This document shows, piece after piece, positions 3,591 through 34,036 of a stretch of DNA of 37,926 bases. Source of the stretch: Candidatus Brennerbacteria bacterium. Lineage in GTDB: Bacteria; Patescibacteriota; Minisyncoccia; UBA6257; JACPKE01. The stretch lies in the NCBI GenBank assembly GCA_016187205.1, contig JACPKE010000004.1, forward strand, positions 1-37,926. Direction: 5' to 3'. The notes under the pieces are model-generated. The model was not told the DNA's origin. It saw only the letters and a program-made list of their open reading frames with translations, and ran no database searches. The position numbers were made by a program, and so were the translations under genes. The stretch's first letter is position 1, and every line of letters starts with the position of its first letter.

Positions 3591-4988
3591 TTATCGCAAC
3601 GTTTTCGTTAATTTCTTAAAAACTTTACCTCTTTCTTTGTAGTCTGTAAACATATCAAAGCTGGCTGATCCGGGGGAAAATAATATGATTAATTTAGTTT
3701 TTAGCTTATAGTTTTTTCCGCCAGAGGCGGATCCGCCTTCGGCGGAAGTTTTTAACTTATTAGCTTTTTTATATGTTAAATTAACAGCGCCTTTTAAATC
3801 TTTCGTTAAAATAATAGGCACACCGGTTTTTGAAATCGCTTTTTTTATTTTATTTTTATTTTCTCCGAATAATATAATCTCAAGCGTGTTGGAATTTTTT
3901 AAAGTGTTTGCCAATGGTTTGAAATCAAGCTTCTTGTCTTTGCCGCCGGCAATTAAAATTTTTGGTTCTTTAAAAGCTTTTATCGCGGCCGCGGTTGTCT
4001 GGGGATTGGTAGATGCGGAATCGTTATAGAAAAACATTCTAACATTCTTGAGAATGTCAGAATGTTTTTTAACAGGGATTTTAATTGATTTAATCAATTC
4101 TAAGCGATGCTCAAGGCCTTTAAAACCCTCAATTGTTTTTTTTATAATATTTTCTTTTATTTTTAAAAAGCGGCAGACTTCCGCGGCCATTAAAGCGTTT
4201 TTGATGTTATGTATCCCGTTAATTTTTAAATTTACGAAGTGGGACTTCGTAAATTTAACAGGGATTTTTTTGGCTCGGCTTTTTGCAATAATTGGTTTTA
4301 AGCCCGGCTCATTATTAAAATAAAATATTTTATCGCCGATTATTTGATTTTTTACAATTCCGGCTTTGGCATTTATATATTCTTTAAAGTTTTTATGCGA
4401 GTCTAGATGGTCGGGAAAAATATTTAAAATCACGGCGATGTTAGGGGAATATTTCAATTCTTGGAGCTGGAAGCTGGACATTTCCAGCACAACAATTGAT
4501 TTTTTTGATAAGCGCGGAAGTATTTCAATTGCTGGTTTGCCGATGTTGCCTGCCAAATAAACATCGCGCTTTGCGGCTTTTAAAATTTTATAAATCAAAG
4601 TTGAGGTTGTGCTTTTGCCTTTGGTGCCGGTTATGCCTATTGTCAGGCATTTGATTTTTTTAGTTTGTTCCAAAAATAATTCTGTGGAACTTGTTATTTT
4701 TGTTCCTGATTTCGCCGCTTCCTGTATTTCTTTTGTCATATACGGAATTCCTGGAGAACGGAAAATAACGTCAAAAATTTCCAAATTTTTAAGGTATTTT
4801 TCTCCGGATATGATTTTAACGCGTTTATTTTTTCCGCCTTTGGTGAAAAATAAAGATTTTACAGGTTTGCGGTCGCAAATCGCAATTTCATAATTTTTAT
4901 AATCGGGAGATTTTAAAAGATAGCGTAAAAGCGCTTGTCCTTCGCGGGCAAAACCAAGAATGGCGATTTTTTTATGAGTTTTTATCAA
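3591..4988 (-). CDS. murD: UDP-N-acetylmuramoyl-L-alanine--D-glutamate ligase
   Basis: Mur ligase P-loop GITGTKGKSTTSTL, an N-terminal Rossmann-like segment (IAILGFAREGQ), GIHNIKNALMAA and a LEHR motif. Length is typical of MurD. Contains two in-frame hairpin insertions (see the repeat features). Confidence 0.9.
   Translation of the reverse strand: MIKTHKKIAILGFAREGQALLRYLLKSPDYKNYEIAICDRKPVKSLFFTKGGKNKRVKIISGEKYLKNLEIFDVIFRSPGIPYMTKEIQEAAKSGTKITSSTELFLEQTKKIKCLTIGITGTKGKSTTSTLIYKILKAAKRDVYLAGNIGKPAIEILPRLSKKSIVVLEMSSFQLQELKYSPNIAVILNIFPDHLDSHKNFKEYINAKAGIVKNQIIGDKIFYFNNEPGLKPIIAKSRAKKIPVKFTKSHFVNLKINGIHNIKNALMAAEVCRFLKIKENIIKKTIEGFKGLEHRLELIKSIKIPVKKHSDILKNVRMFFYNDSASTNPQTTAAAIKAFKEPKILIAGGKDKKLDFKPLANTLKNSNTLEIILFGENKNKIKKAISKTGVPIILTKDLKGAVNLTYKKANKLKTSAEGGSASGGKNYKLKTKLIILFSPGSASFDMFTDYKERGKVFKKLTKTLR
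3717..3746 (-). repeat. 30-bp GC-rich double-hairpin element, in-frame in murD (encodes SAEGGSASGG)
   Basis: The coding strand reads TCCGCCGAAGGCGGATCCGCCTCTGGCGGA. This is 29/30 identical to the copy in gap (33062-33091). Confidence 0.85.
4226..4258 (-). repeat. 33-bp hairpin element (core GAAGTGGGACTTC), in-frame in murD (encodes ..FTKSHFV..)
   Basis: TTAAATTTACGAAGT-GGG-ACTTCGTAAATTTAA forms a 15-bp perfect stem with a 3-nt loop. The same 13-nt core occurs twice in pheT (7933-7972). Confidence 0.8.
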
Positions 4989-5799: not shown

Positions 5800-5868
5800 A
5801 AGATTAGTTGTTTGGTAAGTTCATGAATAAAAATATAAATGATTAATAACCATTTATATTTTTATTAG

Positions 5869-6175
5869 TTGCGGATCGGGGAATCGAACCCCACCCTAAA
5901 GGTTATGCTTGCTACTACGATTTTCATCGCCTCCAAAATTAGGAGTTTGTAGTCTGGACTATACCTTAATCCTGTTTTAACGGGATTCTCGCCATCTAGT
6001 CTCTACGCCTTCTTCATCTCTTCATAATTCAGAGAAACCGAAGCTTGGTTCGGTATTACCTCTCCGTTGTTGGAAGGGGCTCCACCGAGTTTGACGAGTG
6101 TCCATCACTTATTACTAAGTGACGAGCCCATATTAAGTTTTGAGCCTTTCGAGCTCACCAGAGCTCTTATCCGCC
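5869..6175 (-). tRNA. Intron-containing tRNA, predicted anticodon CAT (initiator-like features); exons 6175..6143 and 5907..5869
   Basis: 5' exon is GGCGGATAAGAGCTCTGGTGAGCTCGAAAGGCT and 3' exon is CATAACCTTTAGGGTGGGGTTCGATTCCCCGATCCGCAA. Joined, they give a 72-nt class I cloverleaf with anticodon arm AAAGG-CTCATAA-CCTTT and T-arm TGGGG-TTCGATT-CCCCG. The 5' exon ends in U and the intron ends in G, as group I splicing rules require. Confidence 0.75.
5908..6142 (-). ncRNA. Group I intron (IC3-like), 235 nt, in the anticodon loop between positions 33 and 34
   Basis: Contains core blocks that I recall from the Azoarcus pre-tRNA-Ile intron: GTCAAACTCGGTG, CCAAGCTTCGG, and GATGAAG..GCGTAGAGACTAGATGGC followed by TTAAGG. 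No ORF lies inside. Confidence 0.75.
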
Positions 6176-6264
6176 TTTATATTATATTTAAATACTTTTT
6201 TCTTGTCAAAATTTATGCGCCTCTTTAATTTGCCAATAAAATTTTAGCCATTACAATTAAAATA

Positions 6265-7287
6265 ATGGATATTTTGAAAAATTTGGAAGAAATAAAAAAA
6301 TTGGCTCATCAGGATATTGAGGCGATAAAAACTACGGAAGAATTTGAAAAAGTCCGTGTTAAATATTTAGGCCGGAAAAGCGAGTTAAGCCTGGCCTTGC
6401 GTTCTATTAAAGATTTGCCGATTGAAGAACGGCGTGAAGTCGGTTTTAAAGCTCAGAAGTTGAAACGGGCATTAGAGGAATTATTTTTAAGAAAATTAAG
6501 CGAGTTAAATGTCAAAGGTCAAATGTCAATGGTTAGTTTAGATATTACAAAACCTGGCAAAAAAATTGAATTGGGCCATTTGCATCCGCTTACAAAAATA
6601 TCCCAGGAAATTAAAAATATTTTCATCTCGCTTAATTTTTCCGTTGTTGATGGTCCGCAGGTTGAAATCGAACGTTACAATTTTGACGCATTGAATATTC
6701 CGGCTAACCATTCGGCCAGGGATATGTGGGACACCTTCTGGCTGCAAAGCAGCCAGAAGGTGTCCAGCAGCCAGCTGTCAGCAGCCAGCAGCCGGTTGTT
6801 ATTGCGCACCCACACCAGTCCGGTGCAAATTCGTTATATGGAATCGCATCAGCCGCCTTTTCAGATTATCGCTCCCGGGACAGTATATCGTTATGAAGCA
6901 ACCGATGCCACCCATAGTTTCCAGTTTCAGCAACTGGAAGGTTTAATGGTCGGGAAAAATATTTCTTTCGCTAATTTTAAATATGTTATCAGCGTTTTTT
7001 TGGAAAAATTTTTCAAGCGAAAAATTGAATTTATTCTGCGGCCGAATTATTATCCTTTTGTCGAGCCCGGCGTTGATGTTTATATAAAATGGAAAAATCG
7101 CTGGCTGGAAGTGGCTGGTGCCGGCATGGTTCATCCGAAAGTTTTTGAGGCGGCGCATTATAATCCGCGGGAATGGCAGGGCTTTGCTTTTGGGTTCGGG
7201 TTGGATCGTTTAGCGATGATTAAATATAATATTCCCGACGTCAGGCTTTTTTATTCCGGCGATTTGAGGTTTATTAAACAGTTTTAA
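6265..7287 (+). CDS. pheS: Phenylalanine--tRNA ligase alpha subunit
   Basis: Class II aaRS motifs: HPLT, NFDALNIPANHSARDMWDTFW, LLRTHTSPVQIRYM, APGTVYR, FQQLEG, GAGMVHP and FGFGLDRLAM. Carries a roughly 14-aa insert between DTFW and LLRTHTS. Confidence 0.95.
   Translation: MDILKNLEEIKKLAHQDIEAIKTTEEFEKVRVKYLGRKSELSLALRSIKDLPIEERREVGFKAQKLKRALEELFLRKLSELNVKGQMSMVSLDITKPGKKIELGHLHPLTKISQEIKNIFISLNFSVVDGPQVEIERYNFDALNIPANHSARDMWDTFWLQSSQKVSSSQLSAASSRLLLRTHTSPVQIRYMESHQPPFQIIAPGTVYRYEATDATHSFQFQQLEGLMVGKNISFANFKYVISVFLEKFFKRKIEFILRPNYYPFVEPGVDVYIKWKNRWLEVAGAGMVHPKVFEAAHYNPREWQGFAFGFGLDRLAMIKYNIPDVRLFYSGDLRFIKQF
6729..6765 (+). repeat. 17-bp-stem perfect hairpin inside pheS; the left arm is conserved coding sequence
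   Basis: GGACACCTTCTGGCTGC-AAA-GCAGCCAGAAGGTGTCC, followed by further GCAGCCAG copies at 6767-6774 and 6781-6788. Confidence 0.85.
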
Positions 7288-7715: not shown

Positions 7716-9794
7716 ATGAAATTTTCTTACACTTTAATAAAAAAAATAGTTCCAGGGCTTAAAAATAAAAACCAGCTTATTGAAGCGTTAAATGAACATT
7801 CTTTTGAAGTTGTTGACGCGGAAGGCGATTCCTTTGATGTTTCGGTTCCGCCCAACCGGTTTTCCGATGCGGCTTCGCATTGGGGAATAGCGCGGGAAAT
7901 TTCCGCGATTTTAAATTTGAAATTAAATATTAAGGAAGTGGGACTTCCTAATATTAGGAAGTCCCACTTCCTAAGAGTTGAGATTAAAGAAAAAAAGCTT
8001 TGCCGGCGTTATATCGCCGAATATTTTACCAACGTTAAAATTAAGCCGTCTCCTGTCTGGATGCAGAAAATTTTAAAAGACTGCGGTTTGCGGCCGATTA
8101 ATAATGTTGTTGATATTATGAATTACGTTATGCTGGAAACCGGACAGCCGTTACACGCTTTCGATTTTGATAAAATCGAAAGCGTTAAAATCAAAAATCA
8201 AAAATCAAAAATCAAAAATATTATAATTCGCACGGCAAAACACAGCGAGGAAATTAAAACATTAGATAATCAGCAATTTATTCTTAATGCCGATGTTCTG
8301 GTTATAGCCGATTCCAAATTTCCGTTAGCGATTGCCGGCGTAAAAGGCGGTAAAAAAGCCGAGGTGGATGCCAAAACTAAAAATATCATTGTTGAAGCCG
8401 CGAATTTTGACGGTCCGAATATTTACAGAACATCAAAATTTTTAAATTTAAAAACAGACGCTTCTTTAAGATTTTCTCATAGTTTAAGTCCGTTCTTAGC
8501 CGGTTTGGGATTGGCAAGGGCGGGAGAACTGCTTATAAAAGAAGGCGCTCGGCCGCAGGCTTATTACGATTCCCATCCGGACGGACATTTGAAAAAACTT
8601 ATTGAATTTAATATTGAAAAATTCAATCATTTAATCGGCGTTAATTTAAGTATTGGGCAGGCGGAGGATTATTTAAAGCGGCTCGGTTTTTTAACGGCTA
8701 AAAACTATAACCTAAAAACTAAAAGTTCATTCTTAGTTGAAGTTCCGCAATTTCGGGCGGATATAGAAAATTCTGAAGATTTGGCAGAGGAAATCAGCAG
8801 GCTTTACGGATATAATAAAATTAAATCTTTGCCTCCCGAGGTGCCGCTTAAAATAGCCAAAACTGATGATATTATTGTTTTTAAAGACCAATTGCGGAAA
8901 ATTTTAACCGGATTTGGCGCTAGTGAAGTTTATAATTATTCTTTTGTTTCAGCGACTGACTCAAGGCTTGGTTTTGATGGTGGTAAACCGGTTGAGCTTT
9001 TAAATCCGATTAGCCCGGCGTTCCAATTTTTGCGTCCGAATTTAGCCATTGGTTTGTTAAAAAATATCAAGGAAAATTTCCGTTTTTTTGAAGAGGCAAG
9101 GATTTTTGAAATAGGGAAAGTTTTTAACAAACGCGATGTAAAACTGCGAATGCGTCCGAATCAACGAATAAATTCAAATGATACTAATATAGAAGGCTGG
9201 CTTGCCAGCCGAAGCATTAGCGAAGGCTGGCGGCTGGGAATCGCGATTGGTTCTAAAAACAAGGAAATTATTTTTGAACTTAAAGGTTTAGTTTCCGAGT
9301 TGCTGAAAAAATCTGGACTGGTTGAATTTTTTATGCGTGATGGCGGCAAAAAATCAGATTTTTTACAAGCTGACGGGGCGTTAATGATTGAATCTGATAA
9401 TTCAATTATCGGATATCTTGGCAAGGCCGGTGATTTTACCAGCGTTTGCGAGATTGATTTGGAGAAATTGCTAAATCTTGTGGAAGGCGAATTGGAATTC
9501 CGGCCATTACCAAAGTATCCGTCTGTAATGCGAGATATTTCAATCCTTGTCAGCCGCGACATAAGAATCGGGGAAATTTTGGAAGCTATGAATTCGCCGG
9601 AAATTCAATATGTTGACGATGTTGATTTGATTGATGAATATTTTAGCGATAAGCTTGGCGGCAACCGCCAGAGCCTGACTTTTCGCGTTGTTTTTCGTTC
9701 GGAAGAAAAAACCCTTGAGGACAGGGAAGTTGATAAAGAATTGGTTAAAATAGTCAATATTTTGAAAGAAAAATTTATGGCTGAAATACGTTGA
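7716..9794 (+). CDS. pheT: Phenylalanine--tRNA ligase beta subunit (short form lacking the N-terminal tRNA-binding domain)
   Basis: B3/4-type region (RYIAEYF..VKIKPSPVWMQKIL..CGLRPINNVVDIMNYVMLETGQPLHAFD), B5-like region, and a C-terminal FDX-ACB-like end (YPSVMRDISILV...QSLTFRVVFRS..KTL). Position directly after pheS supports the call. Confidence 0.9.
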   Translation: MKFSYTLIKKIVPGLKNKNQLIEALNEHSFEVVDAEGDSFDVSVPPNRFSDAASHWGIAREISAILNLKLNIKEVGLPNIRKSHFLRVEIKEKKLCRRYIAEYFTNVKIKPSPVWMQKILKDCGLRPINNVVDIMNYVMLETGQPLHAFDFDKIESVKIKNQKSKIKNIIIRTAKHSEEIKTLDNQQFILNADVLVIADSKFPLAIAGVKGGKKAEVDAKTKNIIVEAANFDGPNIYRTSKFLNLKTDASLRFSHSLSPFLAGLGLARAGELLIKEGARPQAYYDSHPDGHLKKLIEFNIEKFNHLIGVNLSIGQAEDYLKRLGFLTAKNYNLKTKSSFLVEVPQFRADIENSEDLAEEISRLYGYNKIKSLPPEVPLKIAKTDDIIVFKDQLRKILTGFGASEVYNYSFVSATDSRLGFDGGKPVELLNPISPAFQFLRPNLAIGLLKNIKENFRFFEEARIFEIGKVFNKRDVKLRMRPNQRINSNDTNIEGWLASRSISEGWRLGIAIGSKNKEIIFELKGLVSELLKKSGLVEFFMRDGGKKSDFLQADGALMIESDNSIIGYLGKAGDFTSVCEIDLEKLLNLVEGELEFRPLPKYPSVMRDISILVSRDIRIGEILEAMNSPEIQYVDDVDLIDEYFSDKLGGNRQSLTFRVVFRSEEKTLEDREVDKELVKIVNILKEKFMAEIR
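7933..7972 (+). repeat. 40-bp perfect palindrome in pheT made of two inverted GGAAGT-GGG/CCC-ACTTCC hairpins
   Basis: AGGAAGTGGGACTTCCTAAT|ATTAGGAAGTCCCACTTCCT. It encodes ..EVGLPNIRKSHFL.. and shares its 13-nt core with murD 4226-4258. Confidence 0.85.
8187..8220 (+). repeat. 7-bp microsatellite (AAAAATC, about 4.9 units) inside the pheT coding sequence
   Basis: AAAATC AAAAATC AAAAATC AAAAATC AAAAATA, encoding KIKNQKSKIKNI. Confidence 0.9.
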
Positions 9795-13812: not shown

Positions 13813-14238
13813 ATGGCTAAACTAATCAAAACAACTTTAAAATTGCAGATTGAAGCCGGGAAAGCCAATCCGGCGCCGCCGATTGGACCGGCTCTTGGCC
13901 AGCACGGCGTTAATATTCAGGATTTTTGCAAGCAGTTTAACGACGCCACCAAGGATATGACCGGGGATGTTGTTCCGGCGGAAATCACTATTTATCAGGA
14001 CAGGACTTTTGATTTTAAACTGAAAACTCCTCCGGCTTCGGCTTTGCTTAAAAAAGCCGCTGGCGTTGAAAAAGGATCCAAGGATATTTTAAAAAGCAAA
14101 GTCGGCAAGGTTTCCAGAGAAGATATCAGGAAAATAGCCGAACGCAAAATGATTGATTTGAATACCGATAATGTTGAAGAGGCGGAAAAAATAATTGCCG
14201 GCACCGCAAAATCAATGGGGATTGAGGTTATGGATTAA
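13813..14238 (+). CDS. rplK: 50S ribosomal protein L11
   Basis: [42 protein letters not shown] prefer the ATG at 13813 over the upstream TTG at 13795 given in the ORF track, because L11 proteins normally begin MAK. Confidence 0.93.
14125..14237 (+). repeat. 113-bp segment of the rplK 3' end, duplicated at 18851..18963 (1 mismatch)
   Basis: Direct comparison of the two stretches, ATCAGGAAAATAGCCGAACGCAAAATGATTGATTTG...GGGATTGAGGTTATGGATTA. The only difference is ATAATTGCC versus ATAATCGCC. Confidence 0.95.
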
Positions 14239-18733: not shown

Positions 18734-18970
18734 ATGGTTAAAAAATTATTCACAATCGAAGGAATGCATTGCGGCGCTTGCGCCGCCGGCATTGAGAAAG
18801 GTTCCGGCGACGTTTTAAAAAAAACAGCTGGTAAAATCAGCAGGGAAGACATCAGGAAAATAGCCGAACGCAAAATGATTGATTTGAATACCGATAATGT
18901 TGAAGAGGCGGAAAAAATAATCGCCGGCACCGCAAAATCAATGGGGATTGAGGTTATGGATTATTTTTAA
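18734..18970 (+). CDS. Chimeric ORF: HMA-like N-terminal fragment fused to a second copy of the L11 C-terminal domain
   Basis: [16 protein letters not shown] carries the GMxCxxC heavy-metal-associated signature. It is followed by [60 protein letters not shown], which corresponds to L11 residues from about 84 to the end. The last 113 bp are near-identical to rplK. It may be a pseudogene. Confidence 0.45.
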
Positions 18971-28293: not shown

Positions 28294-28313
28294 TTTTAGT
28301 ATAGTATAATATC

Positions 28314-28367
28314 TAGTATCTAGTATCTAGTATCTAGTATCTAGTATCTAGTATCTAGTATCTAGTA
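28314..28367. repeat. 7-bp microsatellite (TAGTATC x7 plus a partial unit) in a divergent intergenic region
   Basis: Perfect TAGTATC units from 28314 to 28362, then TAGTA. Lies between the sugar transferase start (28293, -) and the DsbA-like start (28388, +). Confidence 0.95.
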
Positions 28368-30248: not shown

Positions 30249-31186
30249 TGTACGATGTAATTATTGTTGGCGGCGGGCCGGCTGGAGTTGCCGCCGGAAT
30301 CTACACCGCCAGGAAAAAATTAAAAACGCTTTTAATGACAGAGGAATTCGGCGGCCAGTCAATCGTGTCCGATGACATTCAGAATTGGATTGGCGATGCC
30401 CACATTTCCGGTTTTGATTTGGCGAAAAAACTTGAGGCGCATTTGCGGACTTATTCCGATGATGTTGATATTAAAATTCCGGAAAAAGCCGTTGAGGTGA
30501 AAAGAATCGGCGATGGTTTGACGGCTATGGGATTTGAAGTGAAAACCGATAAAAATAATGTTTATCAGGCAAGAGCGGTGATTTTAGCGAGCGGAGCGCG
30601 CCGCAGAAAATTAAATATCCCGGGAGAGGACCGCTTGAACGGAAAAGGAGTTGTTTATTGTTCAACTTGCGACGCCCCGCTTTTTAAAGATAAAGCGGTG
30701 GCTGTTGTCGGCGGAGGCAATGCCGGCTTGGAAGCGGTAGTTGATCTTTTTCCTTACGCGTCAAAAATTTATCTTTTGGAATTCGGTGAAACTCTCAAAG
30801 GCGACCAGGTTTCCCAGGAAGAGGTGAAAAAGAACCAGAAAGTTGAAATTCTTTTTTTTGCCGAAACGCGCGAGATATTGGGGGATAAGTTTGTTGCCGG
30901 ATTGAAATACAGCCACCGCAAAACAGGCGAGGAAAAAATTTTGGATGTAAAAGGAGTTTTTGTTGAAATCGGTTCGGTTCCCAATTCCGAAATGGTTAAA
31001 GGTTTGGTGGCGCTGGATAAATATGGCCAGGTGATTATTGATTCAAAACACAGCACCACTTCCGAACCGGGAATTTTCGCGGCTGGAGACGTTACCGACG
31101 ATCCTTACAAGCAGAATAATATTTCCGTAGGCGACGCGGTTAAGGCGGCTTTGGCGGCTTATAATTATCTTTTGAAGAATAAGTGA
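30248..31186 (+). CDS. trxB: Thioredoxin-disulfide reductase
   Basis: YDVIIVGGGPAGVAAGIY (FAD-binding), the CSTCDAPLF redox CxxC, VVGGGNAGLEAV (NADPH-binding) and FAAGDVTD. Confidence 0.9.
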   Translation: MYDVIIVGGGPAGVAAGIYTARKKLKTLLMTEEFGGQSIVSDDIQNWIGDAHISGFDLAKKLEAHLRTYSDDVDIKIPEKAVEVKRIGDGLTAMGFEVKTDKNNVYQARAVILASGARRRKLNIPGEDRLNGKGVVYCSTCDAPLFKDKAVAVVGGGNAGLEAVVDLFPYASKIYLLEFGETLKGDQVSQEEVKKNQKVEILFFAETREILGDKFVAGLKYSHRKTGEEKILDVKGVFVEIGSVPNSEMVKGLVALDKYGQVIIDSKHSTTSEPGIFAAGDVTDDPYKQNNISVGDAVKAALAAYNYLLKNK

Positions 31187-31719
31187 TAGTCGTACTTTCT
31201 GATATTCGGAGTATTTATAATGTCGGTTCAATTTTCCGAACCGCGGACGCGGTTGGCGCTGAAAAAATTTATCTTTGCGGAATAACTCCGGCGCCGATTG
31301 ACCGTTTCGGAAAAATTAGGCCGCAATTTGCCAAAGTTTCTCTTGGCGCGGAAAAATTAGTTAAATGGGCAAAGGTAAAAGCGACAGGCGTAATTATTGA
31401 AAAATTAAAAAAAGACGGGTATAAAATATTTGCTATTGAGCAGTCAAAAACATCAATTCTTTATTATAAAACCAATCTATCGCGGTCCGACCGCGATAGA
31501 TTGGTTTTGATTTTAGGGGGCGAAGTTAAAGGGTTGCCGCCGGCGATTTTAAAAAAAGCCGACAAGGTTTTGGAAATTCCGATGAGAGGGGCAATGGTTC
31601 GGCAGGCTCACCATCCGCGAAGTTTAGGCCGCGGAAAAGAATCGTTGAATGTATCAGTTGCTTTCGGCGTTATCGCTTATTTTTTAAGATTCAAAAAATG
31701 CAACGTTATATTCAATTAA
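31183..31719 (+). CDS. SpoU/TrmH-family RNA 2'-O-methyltransferase
   Basis: NVGSIFRTADAVG, LVLILGGEVKGL and IPM.G....SLNVSVAFGVIAY (SPOUT motifs 1-3). GTG start overlapping the trxB stop. Two apparent in-frame inserts. Confidence 0.85.
   Translation: MIVVLSDIRSIYNVGSIFRTADAVGAEKIYLCGITPAPIDRFGKIRPQFAKVSLGAEKLVKWAKVKATGVIIEKLKKDGYKIFAIEQSKTSILYYKTNLSRSDRDRLVLILGGEVKGLPPAILKKADKVLEIPMRGAMVRQAHHPRSLGRGKESLNVSVAFGVIAYFLRFKKCNVIFN
31468..31508 (+). repeat. 41-bp near-perfect palindrome inside the SpoU methyltransferase gene
   Basis: AAAACCAATCTATCGCGG-TCCGA-CCGCGATAGATTGGTTTT (18-bp stems), encoding KTNLSRSDRDRLVL. Confidence 0.85.
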
Positions 31720-32992: not shown

Positions 32993-34036
32993 ATGAAAAA
33001 TGTAAAAATAGCAATAAACGGGTTTGGCAGGATAGGCCGGCTTTTTTTCCGCCAGGCTTTTTCCGCCCAAGGCGGATCCGCCTCTGGCGGAGGTTTAGAT
33101 ATCGTTGCCGTTAATGATCTGGGCGATATTGAAAATTTGGCTTATTTGTTAAAATACGACACTGTTTACGGCCGGTTCGCCAAAGAGATAAAAGTAAAAA
33201 GCGATAAGTTAATTGTTGATAATAAAGAAGTTAAATTTATTCAGGAAAAAGATCCGGCGCGGCTGCCCTGGAAAGATTTGGGAATAGATATTGCGATTGA
33301 ATCAACGGGATTTTTTGAATCCTATGATAAAGCTAAAGCGCATATCGGCGCCGGAGCCAAACGGGTTGTTATTACCGCTCCGGCAAAAGATCCGGACGGC
33401 GTTGAAGGGAAAACAATCTTGATTGGAGTGAATGAAGCAGAGGCAAAAGGCATTGTTTTGACTTCAAACGGTTCCTGTACCACTAATGCCGCGTCTCCGG
33501 TAATCCAGATAATGTCCGAAAATCCGGGTATTCAGAAAGCGATTTTAAACACGGTTCATGGCTATACCGCTACGCAGAATTTGGTTGACGGGCCGACCAA
33601 GGGCAAGGATTTCCGGCGCGGCCGGGCCGCGGCCCAAAATATTTCGCCTTCAACAACCGGCGCGGCTATCGCGGTTACCCGCGTCATTAAAGAATTGGAA
33701 GGAAAATTTGACGGCGTGGCTTTGCGGGTGCCGGTTGCGACGGGTTCGGTCGCCGATATCACTTTTCTGGCAAAACGGAAAACTACCGAAGCTGAAATTA
33801 ACGATATTTTTAAACAAGCTGCCGCGTCTCCGAGATGGAAAGGGATTTTAGCCGTCACCGAAGACCAGATTGTTTCTTCGGATATCATCGGCGAACCATA
33901 CGGCGCGATTGTTGATTTGAAATTTACCAAAGTTGTTGACGGCGATCTGGTGAAAATTTTGTCATGGTATGATAATGAAGCCGGATATGTTTCAACACTT
34001 ATCAAACATGTTTTAAATGCCGCCGCATTAGTTTAA
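32993..34036 (+). CDS. gap: Type I glyceraldehyde-3-phosphate dehydrogenase
   Basis: KIAINGFGRIGR, the SNGSCTTNAASP active-site Cys, and WYDNEAGY at the C-terminus. Confidence 0.95.
   Translation: MKNVKIAINGFGRIGRLFFRQAFSAQGGSASGGGLDIVAVNDLGDIENLAYLLKYDTVYGRFAKEIKVKSDKLIVDNKEVKFIQEKDPARLPWKDLGIDIAIESTGFFESYDKAKAHIGAGAKRVVITAPAKDPDGVEGKTILIGVNEAEAKGIVLTSNGSCTTNAASPVIQIMSENPGIQKAILNTVHGYTATQNLVDGPTKGKDFRRGRAAAQNISPSTTGAAIAVTRVIKELEGKFDGVALRVPVATGSVADITFLAKRKTTEAEINDIFKQAAASPRWKGILAVTEDQIVSSDIIGEPYGAIVDLKFTKVVDGDLVKILSWYDNEAGYVSTLIKHVLNAAALV
33062..33091 (+). repeat. 30-bp GC-rich double-hairpin element, in-frame in gap (encodes SAQGGSASGG)
   Basis: TCCGCCCAAGGCGGATCCGCCTCTGGCGGA. It inserts between the GRIGR helix and the IVAVND strand, where E. 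coli GapA as I recall it is about 7 residues shorter. Confidence 0.85.

Follow-up and report, generated by a model that had tools for sequence, protein, structure and literature searches.

The 37,926 nucleotides (nt) of contig JACPKE010000004.1 from a Candidatus Brennerbacteria bacterium which were analysed here (the window) contain hairpins within two essential protein-coding genes, those for the beta subunit of phenylalanine-tRNA ligase (pheT) and for UDP-N-acetylmuramoylalanine-D-glutamate ligase (murD), and these hairpins share an identical core of 13 nt. We consider it likely that they are copies of a miniature palindromic element of the Patescibacteria (Paceibacteria and relatives) which resembles repetitive extragenic palindromes (REPs) and their inverted doublets (REPINs) and which is tied to a Y1 transposase similar to the REP-associated tyrosine transposases (RAYTs). 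The palindrome within pheT is best read as a doublet of this unit. The repeat family exists, is widely distributed, occurs in multiple reading frames and is present in some orthologues and absent from others, and in related genomes the hairpins are physically linked to a transposase gene and co-vary with it. We infer that this transposase acts on the hairpins, that their copies were moved by transposition and that the genome from which the window derives encodes such an enzyme.

Hairpins of the window and the repeat family

The palindrome in pheT and the hairpin in murD, with their common core, were found exactly as given in a preliminary description made from the sequence alone, and homologue searches confirmed pheT and murD as the host genes, the best homologues of both proteins being those of Patescibacteria (Paceibacterota, Parcubacteria and Wolfebacteria-like metagenome-assembled genomes, MAGs). 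The sequence at 7933-7972 (AGGAAGTGGGACTTCCTAAT followed by ATTAGGAAGTCCCACTTCCT) consists of two arms of 20 nt with 100% complementarity and zero spacer, each arm contains a small hairpin of its own (GGAAGT-GGG-ACTTCC and GGAAGT-CCC-ACTTCC), and the two units form a head-to-head doublet in which they overlap in AATATT. The sequence at 4226-4258 (TTAAATTTACGAAGT-GGG-ACTTCGTAAATTTAA, 33 nt in total) has perfect arms of 15 nt and a loop of 3 nt. The 13-mer GAAGTGGGACTTC is present at three sites of the window, at 4236 and 7935 on the plus strand and at 7958 on the minus strand; in a shuffle control permitting up to two mismatches, the mean was 0.40 matches and only one of 100 shuffles reached three. 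When folded as single-stranded DNA, the pheT hairpin reached -20.4 kcal/mol (z = -9.2) and the murD hairpin -12.8 kcal/mol (z = -10.2), and none of 200 shuffles folded as well; overall, z values of about -8 to -10 were obtained for the folds. Perfect hairpins with arms of at least 11 nt and loops of at most 6 nt occur six times in the window, compared with 0.31 expected and a maximum of two in 100 first-order Markov simulations. All copies of the window are located inside open reading frames (ORFs), where the three hairpins are read as KEVGLP or KSHF. This amounts to three copies in 38 kb. A fourth might be represented by a hairpin at 31468-31508, a possible diverged member whose apex GGT-CCG-ACC includes the T-CCG-A found at the tip of the family consensus.

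The core also occurs outside the window. When genomes, one for each species, were scanned for AGGAAGTNGGACTTCCTA, at least 114 stretches were obtained; the degenerate core pattern SGAAGTGGGACTTCS has fewer than 14 specified bases. Most of the stretches listed come from Patescibacteria MAGs of many lineages with GC contents from 30 to 58%, and among these matches a single MAG often provides several contigs with the core (up to five). The remaining matches correspond to native coding sequences for E-V-G-L-P in unrelated proteins, such as isoleucyl-tRNA synthetase (IleRS) and pyruvate kinase, or to a conserved site in Thermoleophilaceae. Within the 498 kb of Patescibacteria loci among the matches listed, the core GAAGT(CGG/CCG/GGG/CCC)ACTTC was counted 121 times whereas 0.03 copies were expected. 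A logo of 133 distinct copies gives a consensus of about 29 nt, AAyyTTAG-GAAGT-SGG-ACTTC-CTAArrTT, in which positions -6/-5 co-vary with positions +17/+18. Within a lineage the 13 nt at the apex hardly change; the lower stem is variable yet paired. According to the stem beside the core, sub-families with TTAG, TTAC, TTTG, TCAT or ATCG can be distinguished, and it is because of such sub-families (TTAG..CTAA and TTAC..GTAA) that the stems around the core differ. A scan of metagenomes for forms with a GGG loop revealed 18 further loci, mostly from groundwater, 13 of which belong to the murD-type TTAC..GTAA sub-family, and a scan of viral contigs gave three matches.

Besides single units there are inverted doublets, whose cores are separated by 5-25 nt in loci L084, L102, L126, L142 and L004, and a doublet is also present in L005. 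These doublets bear on the question of whether the 40-bp palindrome might be a chimera of assembly or amplification, or the shared core a coincidence of similar peptides. Chimeric reads can yield perfect palindromes lacking a spacer, and unrelated organisms (L011, L013 and L024) have a native EVGLP in their IleRS and pyruvate kinase. However, the pheT ORF is intact and in frame, comparable doublets are present in independent assemblies from other samples, and the core is enriched more than 1000-fold and is found in non-coding DNA as well. Artefact or coincidence as a general explanation is therefore extremely improbable, and for the pheT palindrome in particular an assembly artefact is very unlikely. 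As doublets of such size recur in independent assemblies, the earlier emphasis on the persistence of a 40-bp palindrome as a notable replication hazard was overstated. Palindromes as short as 40 bp are tolerated in bacteria, the doublets of REPs and of bacterial interspersed mosaic elements (BIMEs) being comparable cases.

Copies of the repeat are both intergenic and intragenic. Open frames of at least 120 codons contain 66 of the 121 copies, compared with 87% of random positions in the same loci, and the copies are therefore depleted in genes yet still mostly genic. The intragenic copies are read in three frames, all of them stop-free, as E-V-x-L-P (35 copies), K-S-D/H-F (22 copies) or G-S-R/P-T-S (9 copies), and their hosts are unrelated genes such as pheT, murD, an RluD-like synthase (one site shared by two MAGs, L016 and L085), YraN (L020) and others. 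In the E-V-G-L-P frame the consensus TTAG contains an in-frame TAG stop, and all copies read in this frame, including unit 1 of the pheT palindrome, carry AAG, by which the stop is removed and the stem left imperfect. In the preliminary description a hairpin family shared by pheT and murD had been proposed together with a common KSHF peptide. The family holds at the level of DNA, with a constant core and differing stems, whereas KSHF is the translation of just one of its frames; selection for a KSHF peptide motif was rejected, since the core is present in all frames and in intergenic DNA.

A Y1 transposase gene bracketed by the same hairpins

At several loci, repeated cores surround a gene which encodes the motif '...LMPNHFHL...'. 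The encoded protein of about 235 amino acids (aa) matches Pfam Y1_Tnp with 35.9 bits (cut-off 23); among the NCBIfam models, that of the REP-associated tyrosine transposase fits it best. Using tblastn, this gene was detected in 17 of 65 Patescibacteria loci with the pattern, among the matches listed. Homologues number more than 4,700 in the protein collection, all of them assigned to PF01797 and, where named, to a 'transposase' of Parcubacteria, Wolfebacteria, Brennerbacteria or Liptonbacteria. The HUH and Y-I-H-x-N-P motifs of the transposase are conserved. When an AlphaFold (AF2) model of the protein was compared with known structures, the top 24 fold matches in the PDB were all TnpA proteins of IS200/IS605 elements (ISHp608, ISDra2 and Sulfolobus), with a match probability of 1.0 and E values of about 1e-3. 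In 10 of the 11 full-length genes the ATG is preceded by a hairpin at a distance of 22-92 nt and the stop codon is followed by another after 3-19 nt, and 8 of the 11 possess a third hairpin, in frame at about codon 60, which is read as KEVGLPKI; the gene plus its ends comprises about 0.8 kb. Examples of a cognate hairpin inside the ORF are provided by L020 (1710-2417), L122 (1161-1865) and L130 (1820-2503, with a perfect stem of 17 bp). Among 120 homologues this segment varies by sub-clade (KEVGLPKI, QSYEV(E/Q/K)LRKI or YEAKPRKI), EV[GR]LP being present in 42 of them.

The transposase of L130, which is 54% identical, is accompanied by an altered core, GAGGT-TGA-ACCTC, at -40, at about codon 59 and at +62. 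As the core is changed at all three positions, hairpin and enzyme therefore co-vary, and the sub-families with TTTG, TCAT or ATCG stems likewise flank their own transposase variants. A common neighbour gene is found beside the transposase gene in only three to four MAGs.

A gene with a hairpin on either side might also represent an ordinary autonomous insertion sequence (IS) of the IS200/IS605 type, in which case the dispersed hairpins would be solo ends or derived miniature inverted-repeat transposable elements (MITEs) similar to palindrome-associated transposable elements (PATEs), and not parts of a single-copy domesticated RAYT system. Such an interpretation would agree with the Pfam match, which is to the general IS200-like family, with the fold matches to TnpA of IS608 and ISDra2, with a transposase score under the RAYT cut-off of NCBIfam, with the IS200-like size of the gene and its ends, and with the shortness of many gene-bearing contigs, as expected where assemblies break at repeats. 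However, the upstream, internal and downstream hairpins are identical in sequence and do not constitute distinct left and right ends, the hairpins are far more numerous than the transposase genes and occur without them on further contigs from those MAGs, none of the MAGs sampled was seen to possess the gene in two full copies, and the neighbour gene, common to four MAGs, suggests vertical inheritance. An ordinary IS is, in our judgement, an improbable source of the hairpins.

For the element linked to a RAYT-like transposase a mechanism can be proposed by analogy with TnpA of IS608 and with TnpA-REP from E. coli, for which binding and cleavage of the single-stranded repeat are known (PMC3479197). 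The hairpin, once folded on single-stranded DNA (at the replication fork, for example), would be the target recognised by the transposase, which might cut and rejoin the DNA in such a way that copies are spread or homogenised. In tiny gene-dense genomes many of these copies would land in ORFs, where presumably only stop-free copies in tolerant surface linkers survive. The surviving copies would be translated as short loop segments which, depending on the frame, read KEVGLP, RKS(D/H)F or GS(R/P)TS.

Linkers of pheT and murD among orthologues

The pheT palindrome occupies the stretch that links the conserved '...GIAREISAIL' to 'KLC(P/R)RY'. In a comparison of 40 orthologues this linker is hypervariable in sequence and length, and the version of the window is no longer than the others. 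In the preliminary description a core restricted to these loci, together with the same residues in orthologues from unrelated lineages, had been named as evidence against the family, and this check did not refute it: the core is found elsewhere, and the closest pheT orthologues, L001 (69% identity) and L002 (67% identity), contain no core anywhere and no significant hairpin at the pheT site (z = -1.3 and -1.7). The doublet in pheT is thus a peculiarity of the lineage to which the window belongs. In a more distant pheT orthologue, L003 (50% identity), AAGGAAGTcGGACTTCCTA is present at the matching site. The murD gene of another species, L004 (58% identity), contains AAGGAAGTCGGACTTCCTAATATT, a spacer of 25 nt and then the inverted GGAAGTCCGACTTCC; the first 24 nt of this murD element are those of the pheT element of the window save for a loop base, the 24-mer AAGGAAGT(S)GGACTTCCTAATATT being common to both. 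At the protein level, the pheT linker reads KEVQPPKI...QSREVEPLKI in the orthologues P0011, P0012, P0020, P0024 and P0028 from other Paceibacteria. Back-translation of this linker would be compatible with two inverted units of the sub-family found around the L130 transposase (GAGGT-TGA-ACCTC), and the pheT linker may be a recurrent landing site.

The murD hairpin is located at a variable site (site 1) after 'KKIPV', where the usual form is if anything longer than the segment of the window, and many murD orthologues are devoid of the core. At site 1 the window has a single unit with the loop CCC and the stem ACGAAGT, L006 a single unit with the loop CCG and the stem AGGAAGT, L143 a single unit with the stem GAGAT/ATCTC, L142 an inverted doublet with 8 nt separating the cores, and spaced doublets are found in both L004 and L005; in the latter, the two units show mirrored changes. 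Two proposals for murD were abandoned: a clean insert of 11 codons was rejected as orthologue alignments showed no net gain in length, and the idea that the flanks of the hairpin are ancestral coding sequence copied across it was withdrawn as the family consensus reaches about 8 nt beyond the core on both sides.

A number of observations weigh against the interpretation of the window hairpins as copies of a REP-like element with its own transposase. The scan pattern fixed positions -2 to +15 and the counts refer to the matches listed, which introduces a bias into the numbers of copies and into a portion of the consensus, and neither the GTAG nor the CGTC tag of classical REPs was found in the logo of 133 copies. 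The transposase reached 34.6 bits with the NCBIfam RAYT model, for which the curated cut-off is 80, its structural model is of modest confidence (predicted local distance difference test, pLDDT, of 70, and below 50 for the repeat-coded residues 58-64), and PDB sequence searches with the transposase alone or with a profile of eight sequences gave no significant match (best E = 0.19-0.7). No transposase gene was detected in the 38-kb window by tblastn, and no further contig of the same genome was found among the metagenome loci when these were compared with the window by blastn; for the window, the link to the transposase therefore rests on repeat homology. Compared with orthologues, the two window copies do not amount to net insertions, and the simple 'inserts' suggested in the preliminary description turned out to be replacements of variable linkers with no gain in length. 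Furthermore, the hairpin at murD site 1 is present in all five related species with different stems and compensatory changes, and structural selection or local copy-correction could explain this site as well as transposition does. Finally, stems throughout the family reach past the consensus above chance, with a probability of about 0.7 per base pair and with flanks that differ between copies, and this extension is not explained by a fixed-sequence element alone. Stem extension and compensatory changes could result from structural selection, from re-insertion at a hot spot or from copy-correction of arms by template switching.

If template switching within a strand (quasi-palindrome correction) were the whole explanation, the hairpins would have been made and kept perfect locally, with no transposase involved, and the variable linkers would be the places where this is tolerated. 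Perfect hairpins of unrelated sequence do occur elsewhere in the window, in pheS (6729-6765), in pheT (8155-8185) and in an intergenic region (2539-2568), which hints that a local palindrome-perfecting process also operates. In the hairpin at 8155-8185 the conserved HAFDFD motif is encoded by the left arm, and the right arm (KIESV) belongs to a variable region, which suggests that one arm served as the template for the other, and arm copying would likewise agree with the extension of stems despite differing flanks and with the three paired compensatory changes by which the orthologous murD hairpins of the window and of L006 differ. However, template switching leaves unexplained why an identical core of 13-29 nt occurs across different genes, intergenic DNA and species, and also the tight linkage to, and co-variation with, the transposase gene. 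As sole cause it has only a slim chance of being correct, and it is plausible only as a contributing process by which stems are lengthened and repaired.

Alternatively, the hairpin might be a selected functional structure in mRNA or DNA, such as a translation pause, a binding site for an RNase or another protein, or a signal for replication or uptake, which spread because of its function and not by selfish mobility. The murD-site hairpin is retained in at least six lineages with co-varying stems, the in-frame copy keeps a fixed position in the transposase ORF of many homologues (beyond the 42 of 120 with EV[GR]LP, the rest carry related variants), and the core is conserved across MAGs which span GC contents from 30 to 58%. 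In contrast, copies are found in unrelated genes, in all frames, in both orientations and in intergenic DNA, and the hairpin is missing from the closest pheT orthologues and from many murD orthologues. Neither is there a matching Rfam family: at gathering thresholds Rfam detected only two tRNAs and a group I intron, and in permissive mode the hairpins gave sub-threshold, miRNA-like matches. Of these two alternatives, selection for function appears to be the slightly less probable one.

Compared with the REP-like element linked to a RAYT-like transposase, which remains our preferred interpretation, a more far-reaching version of it seems unlikely, though less so than any of the alternatives above. 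It would involve a RAYT-like transposase of ancient origin, passed on largely by vertical descent, and its cognate hairpins would have colonised coding sequence, including essential genes and the transposase ORF itself, where the copy might be autoregulatory. Hairpins would be actively kept paired, and arms and copies would evolve in concert through copy-correction mediated by the transposase or by template switching. Such a system would maintain hairpins and continually remodel linkers in the variable loops of core proteins and would not be a passive selfish repeat.

The murD gene contains further repeats. At its variable site 2 (4019-4080) there is a hairpin of a third family, AAAAACATTCTnACATTCT..AGAATGTnAGAATGTTTTT, with the reading KKHSDILKNVRMFF; many orthologues have related peptides at this site (HSNILKNVGM and similar) and others have no insert (FVRQIKNIKFYNDS). 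An identical direct repeat of 15 nt, AAAATCCCTGTTAAA (K-I-P-V-K in the sense reading), is located at 4068-4082 and 4254-4268, directly before both murD hairpins, those of site 1 and site 2. A separate double-hairpin family, TCCGCC-NNN-GGCGGA twice around GGATCC, is found in murD (3716-3747) and in a GAPDH ORF (32993-34036, copy at 33062-33091). It is presumably the first family to which the preliminary description alludes. It is in frame in both genes, and the murD copy reads SAEGGSASGG at a C-terminal site which is hypervariable in orthologues.

Features of the window and comparison with known systems

The features discussed above and others of the window are compiled in the table.

Table. 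Coordinates of repeat units, host genes and other features in the window
Feature	Position	Strand	Remarks
murD	3591..4988	-	465-aa ORF; reads ...IPVKFTKSHFVNLKING...; identity from homologue search
murD single full-length unit, TTAC..GTAA sub-family	4226..4258	+	Core 4236-4248; 15-bp perfect stem; loop GGG on plus strand, CCC on murD sense strand; read (V)KFTKSHFVNL
pheT	7716..9794	+	692-aa ORF; reads ...NIKEVGLPNIRKSHFLRVE...; identity from homologue search
REPIN-like doublet of two inverted units, perfect 40-bp palindrome in pheT	7933..7972	.	Read K-E-V-G-L-P-N-I-R-K-S-H-F-L
pheT unit 1	7931..7951	+	Core 7935-7947; loop GGG; left stem TAAG, consensus TTAG
pheT unit 2	7952..7976	-	Core 7958-7970; loop CCC on plus strand; perfect 9-bp stem TTAGGAAGT/ACTTCCTAA; read R-K-S-H-F-L
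Repeat-coded peptide stretch			KEVGLPNIRKSHF
Possible diverged relative, perfect 19-20-bp hairpin	31468..31508	.	In SpoU methylase ORF 31183-31719; read KTNLSRSDRDRLVL
Group I intron (Rfam RF00028)	5931-6152	-	59 bits, above gathering threshold; region 5800-6210
Direct repeat of about 113 bp	14125-14237 and 18851-18963		4.7 kb apart; near-identical, few mismatches
Tandem array of 7-nt unit CTAGATA	28310-28365		About 7-8 copies; between two ORFs

The group I intron appears to interrupt a tRNA-like gene, with the exons GCGGATAAGAGCTC... upstream and ...GGTTCGATTCCCCGATCCGCA downstream, and this gene was not called by ARAGORN.

Descriptions of REP/REPIN-RAYT systems refer mainly to Proteobacteria and to extragenic elements, and a related system is now encountered in the ultra-small, gene-dense Patescibacteria. 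With intergenic space being scarce, the repeats are mostly inside genes and translated, which would account for a share of odd hypervariable linkers such as those of pheT and murD and offers a natural system in which the interplay of hairpin repeats, a Y1 transposase and protein evolution can be studied. Assemblies are probably interrupted by these repeats, protein alignments acquire spurious 'insertions' from them, and they could be used as lineage markers. In the literature no paper was found that links RAYTs or REPINs with Patescibacteria or the candidate phyla radiation (CPR), and a paper on the phylogenomics of HUH enzymes makes no mention of it.

The closest known counterparts are the 'REPtrons' of Escherichia, Pseudomonas and Stenotrophomonas, in which hairpin repeats are associated with a Y1 transposase (PMC3116915, PMC5581495, PMC3479197, PMC3733652). 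As in these, the unit is a short hairpin (20-40 nt) with dispersed and apparently numerous copies, inverted doublets that fold into one long hairpin are frequent, the gene for a Y1 HUH transposase is bracketed by the same repeats (here in related genomes only), repeat and transposase co-vary between lineages, and the transposase gene is apparently present once per genome in the MAGs sampled. Unlike classical REPs, the Patescibacteria repeat lacks GTAG or CGTC at the foot of the hairpin, and it is the apex and not the lower stem that is conserved. Classical REPs are extragenic whereas about half of the Patescibacteria copies are inside ORFs and translated, one of them in frame inside the transposase ORF, the core is common to a very broad set of Patescibacteria instead of being species-specific, and the protein of about 235 aa stays below the NCBIfam cut-off for RAYTs.

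With IS200/IS605 elements and their MITEs (PATEs), the system shares the Y1 HUH fold and motifs, a gene-plus-ends size of about 0.8 kb and, by analogy, sub-terminal hairpins that would be recognised on single-stranded DNA. It differs from them in having the same hairpin at both ends and internally and in solo hairpins that far outnumber the gene, and a multi-copy full-length element was not seen. The location of copies in frame is not new in kind, because intragenic REPs and the Rickettsia palindromic elements (RPEs) are precedents (Di Nocera et al., 2013; PMC3733652). RPE sequences are presumably unrelated to the repeat described here, their taxon is unrelated as well, and RPE-1, of about 100-150 bp, has no known dedicated transposase whereas the unit of about 29 nt is linked to a Y1 enzyme; in addition, the copies of the window take the place of a variable linker and add no length to it. 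Nevertheless, in both cases palindromes occur in frame in protein genes of a reduced genome, housekeeping genes included, often as dimers which encode 10-30 residues, different repeats recur near the same site of an orthologue, and in-frame copies are tolerated in surface or variable regions, as is also suggested by pLDDT values below 50 for the repeat residues in the transposase model.

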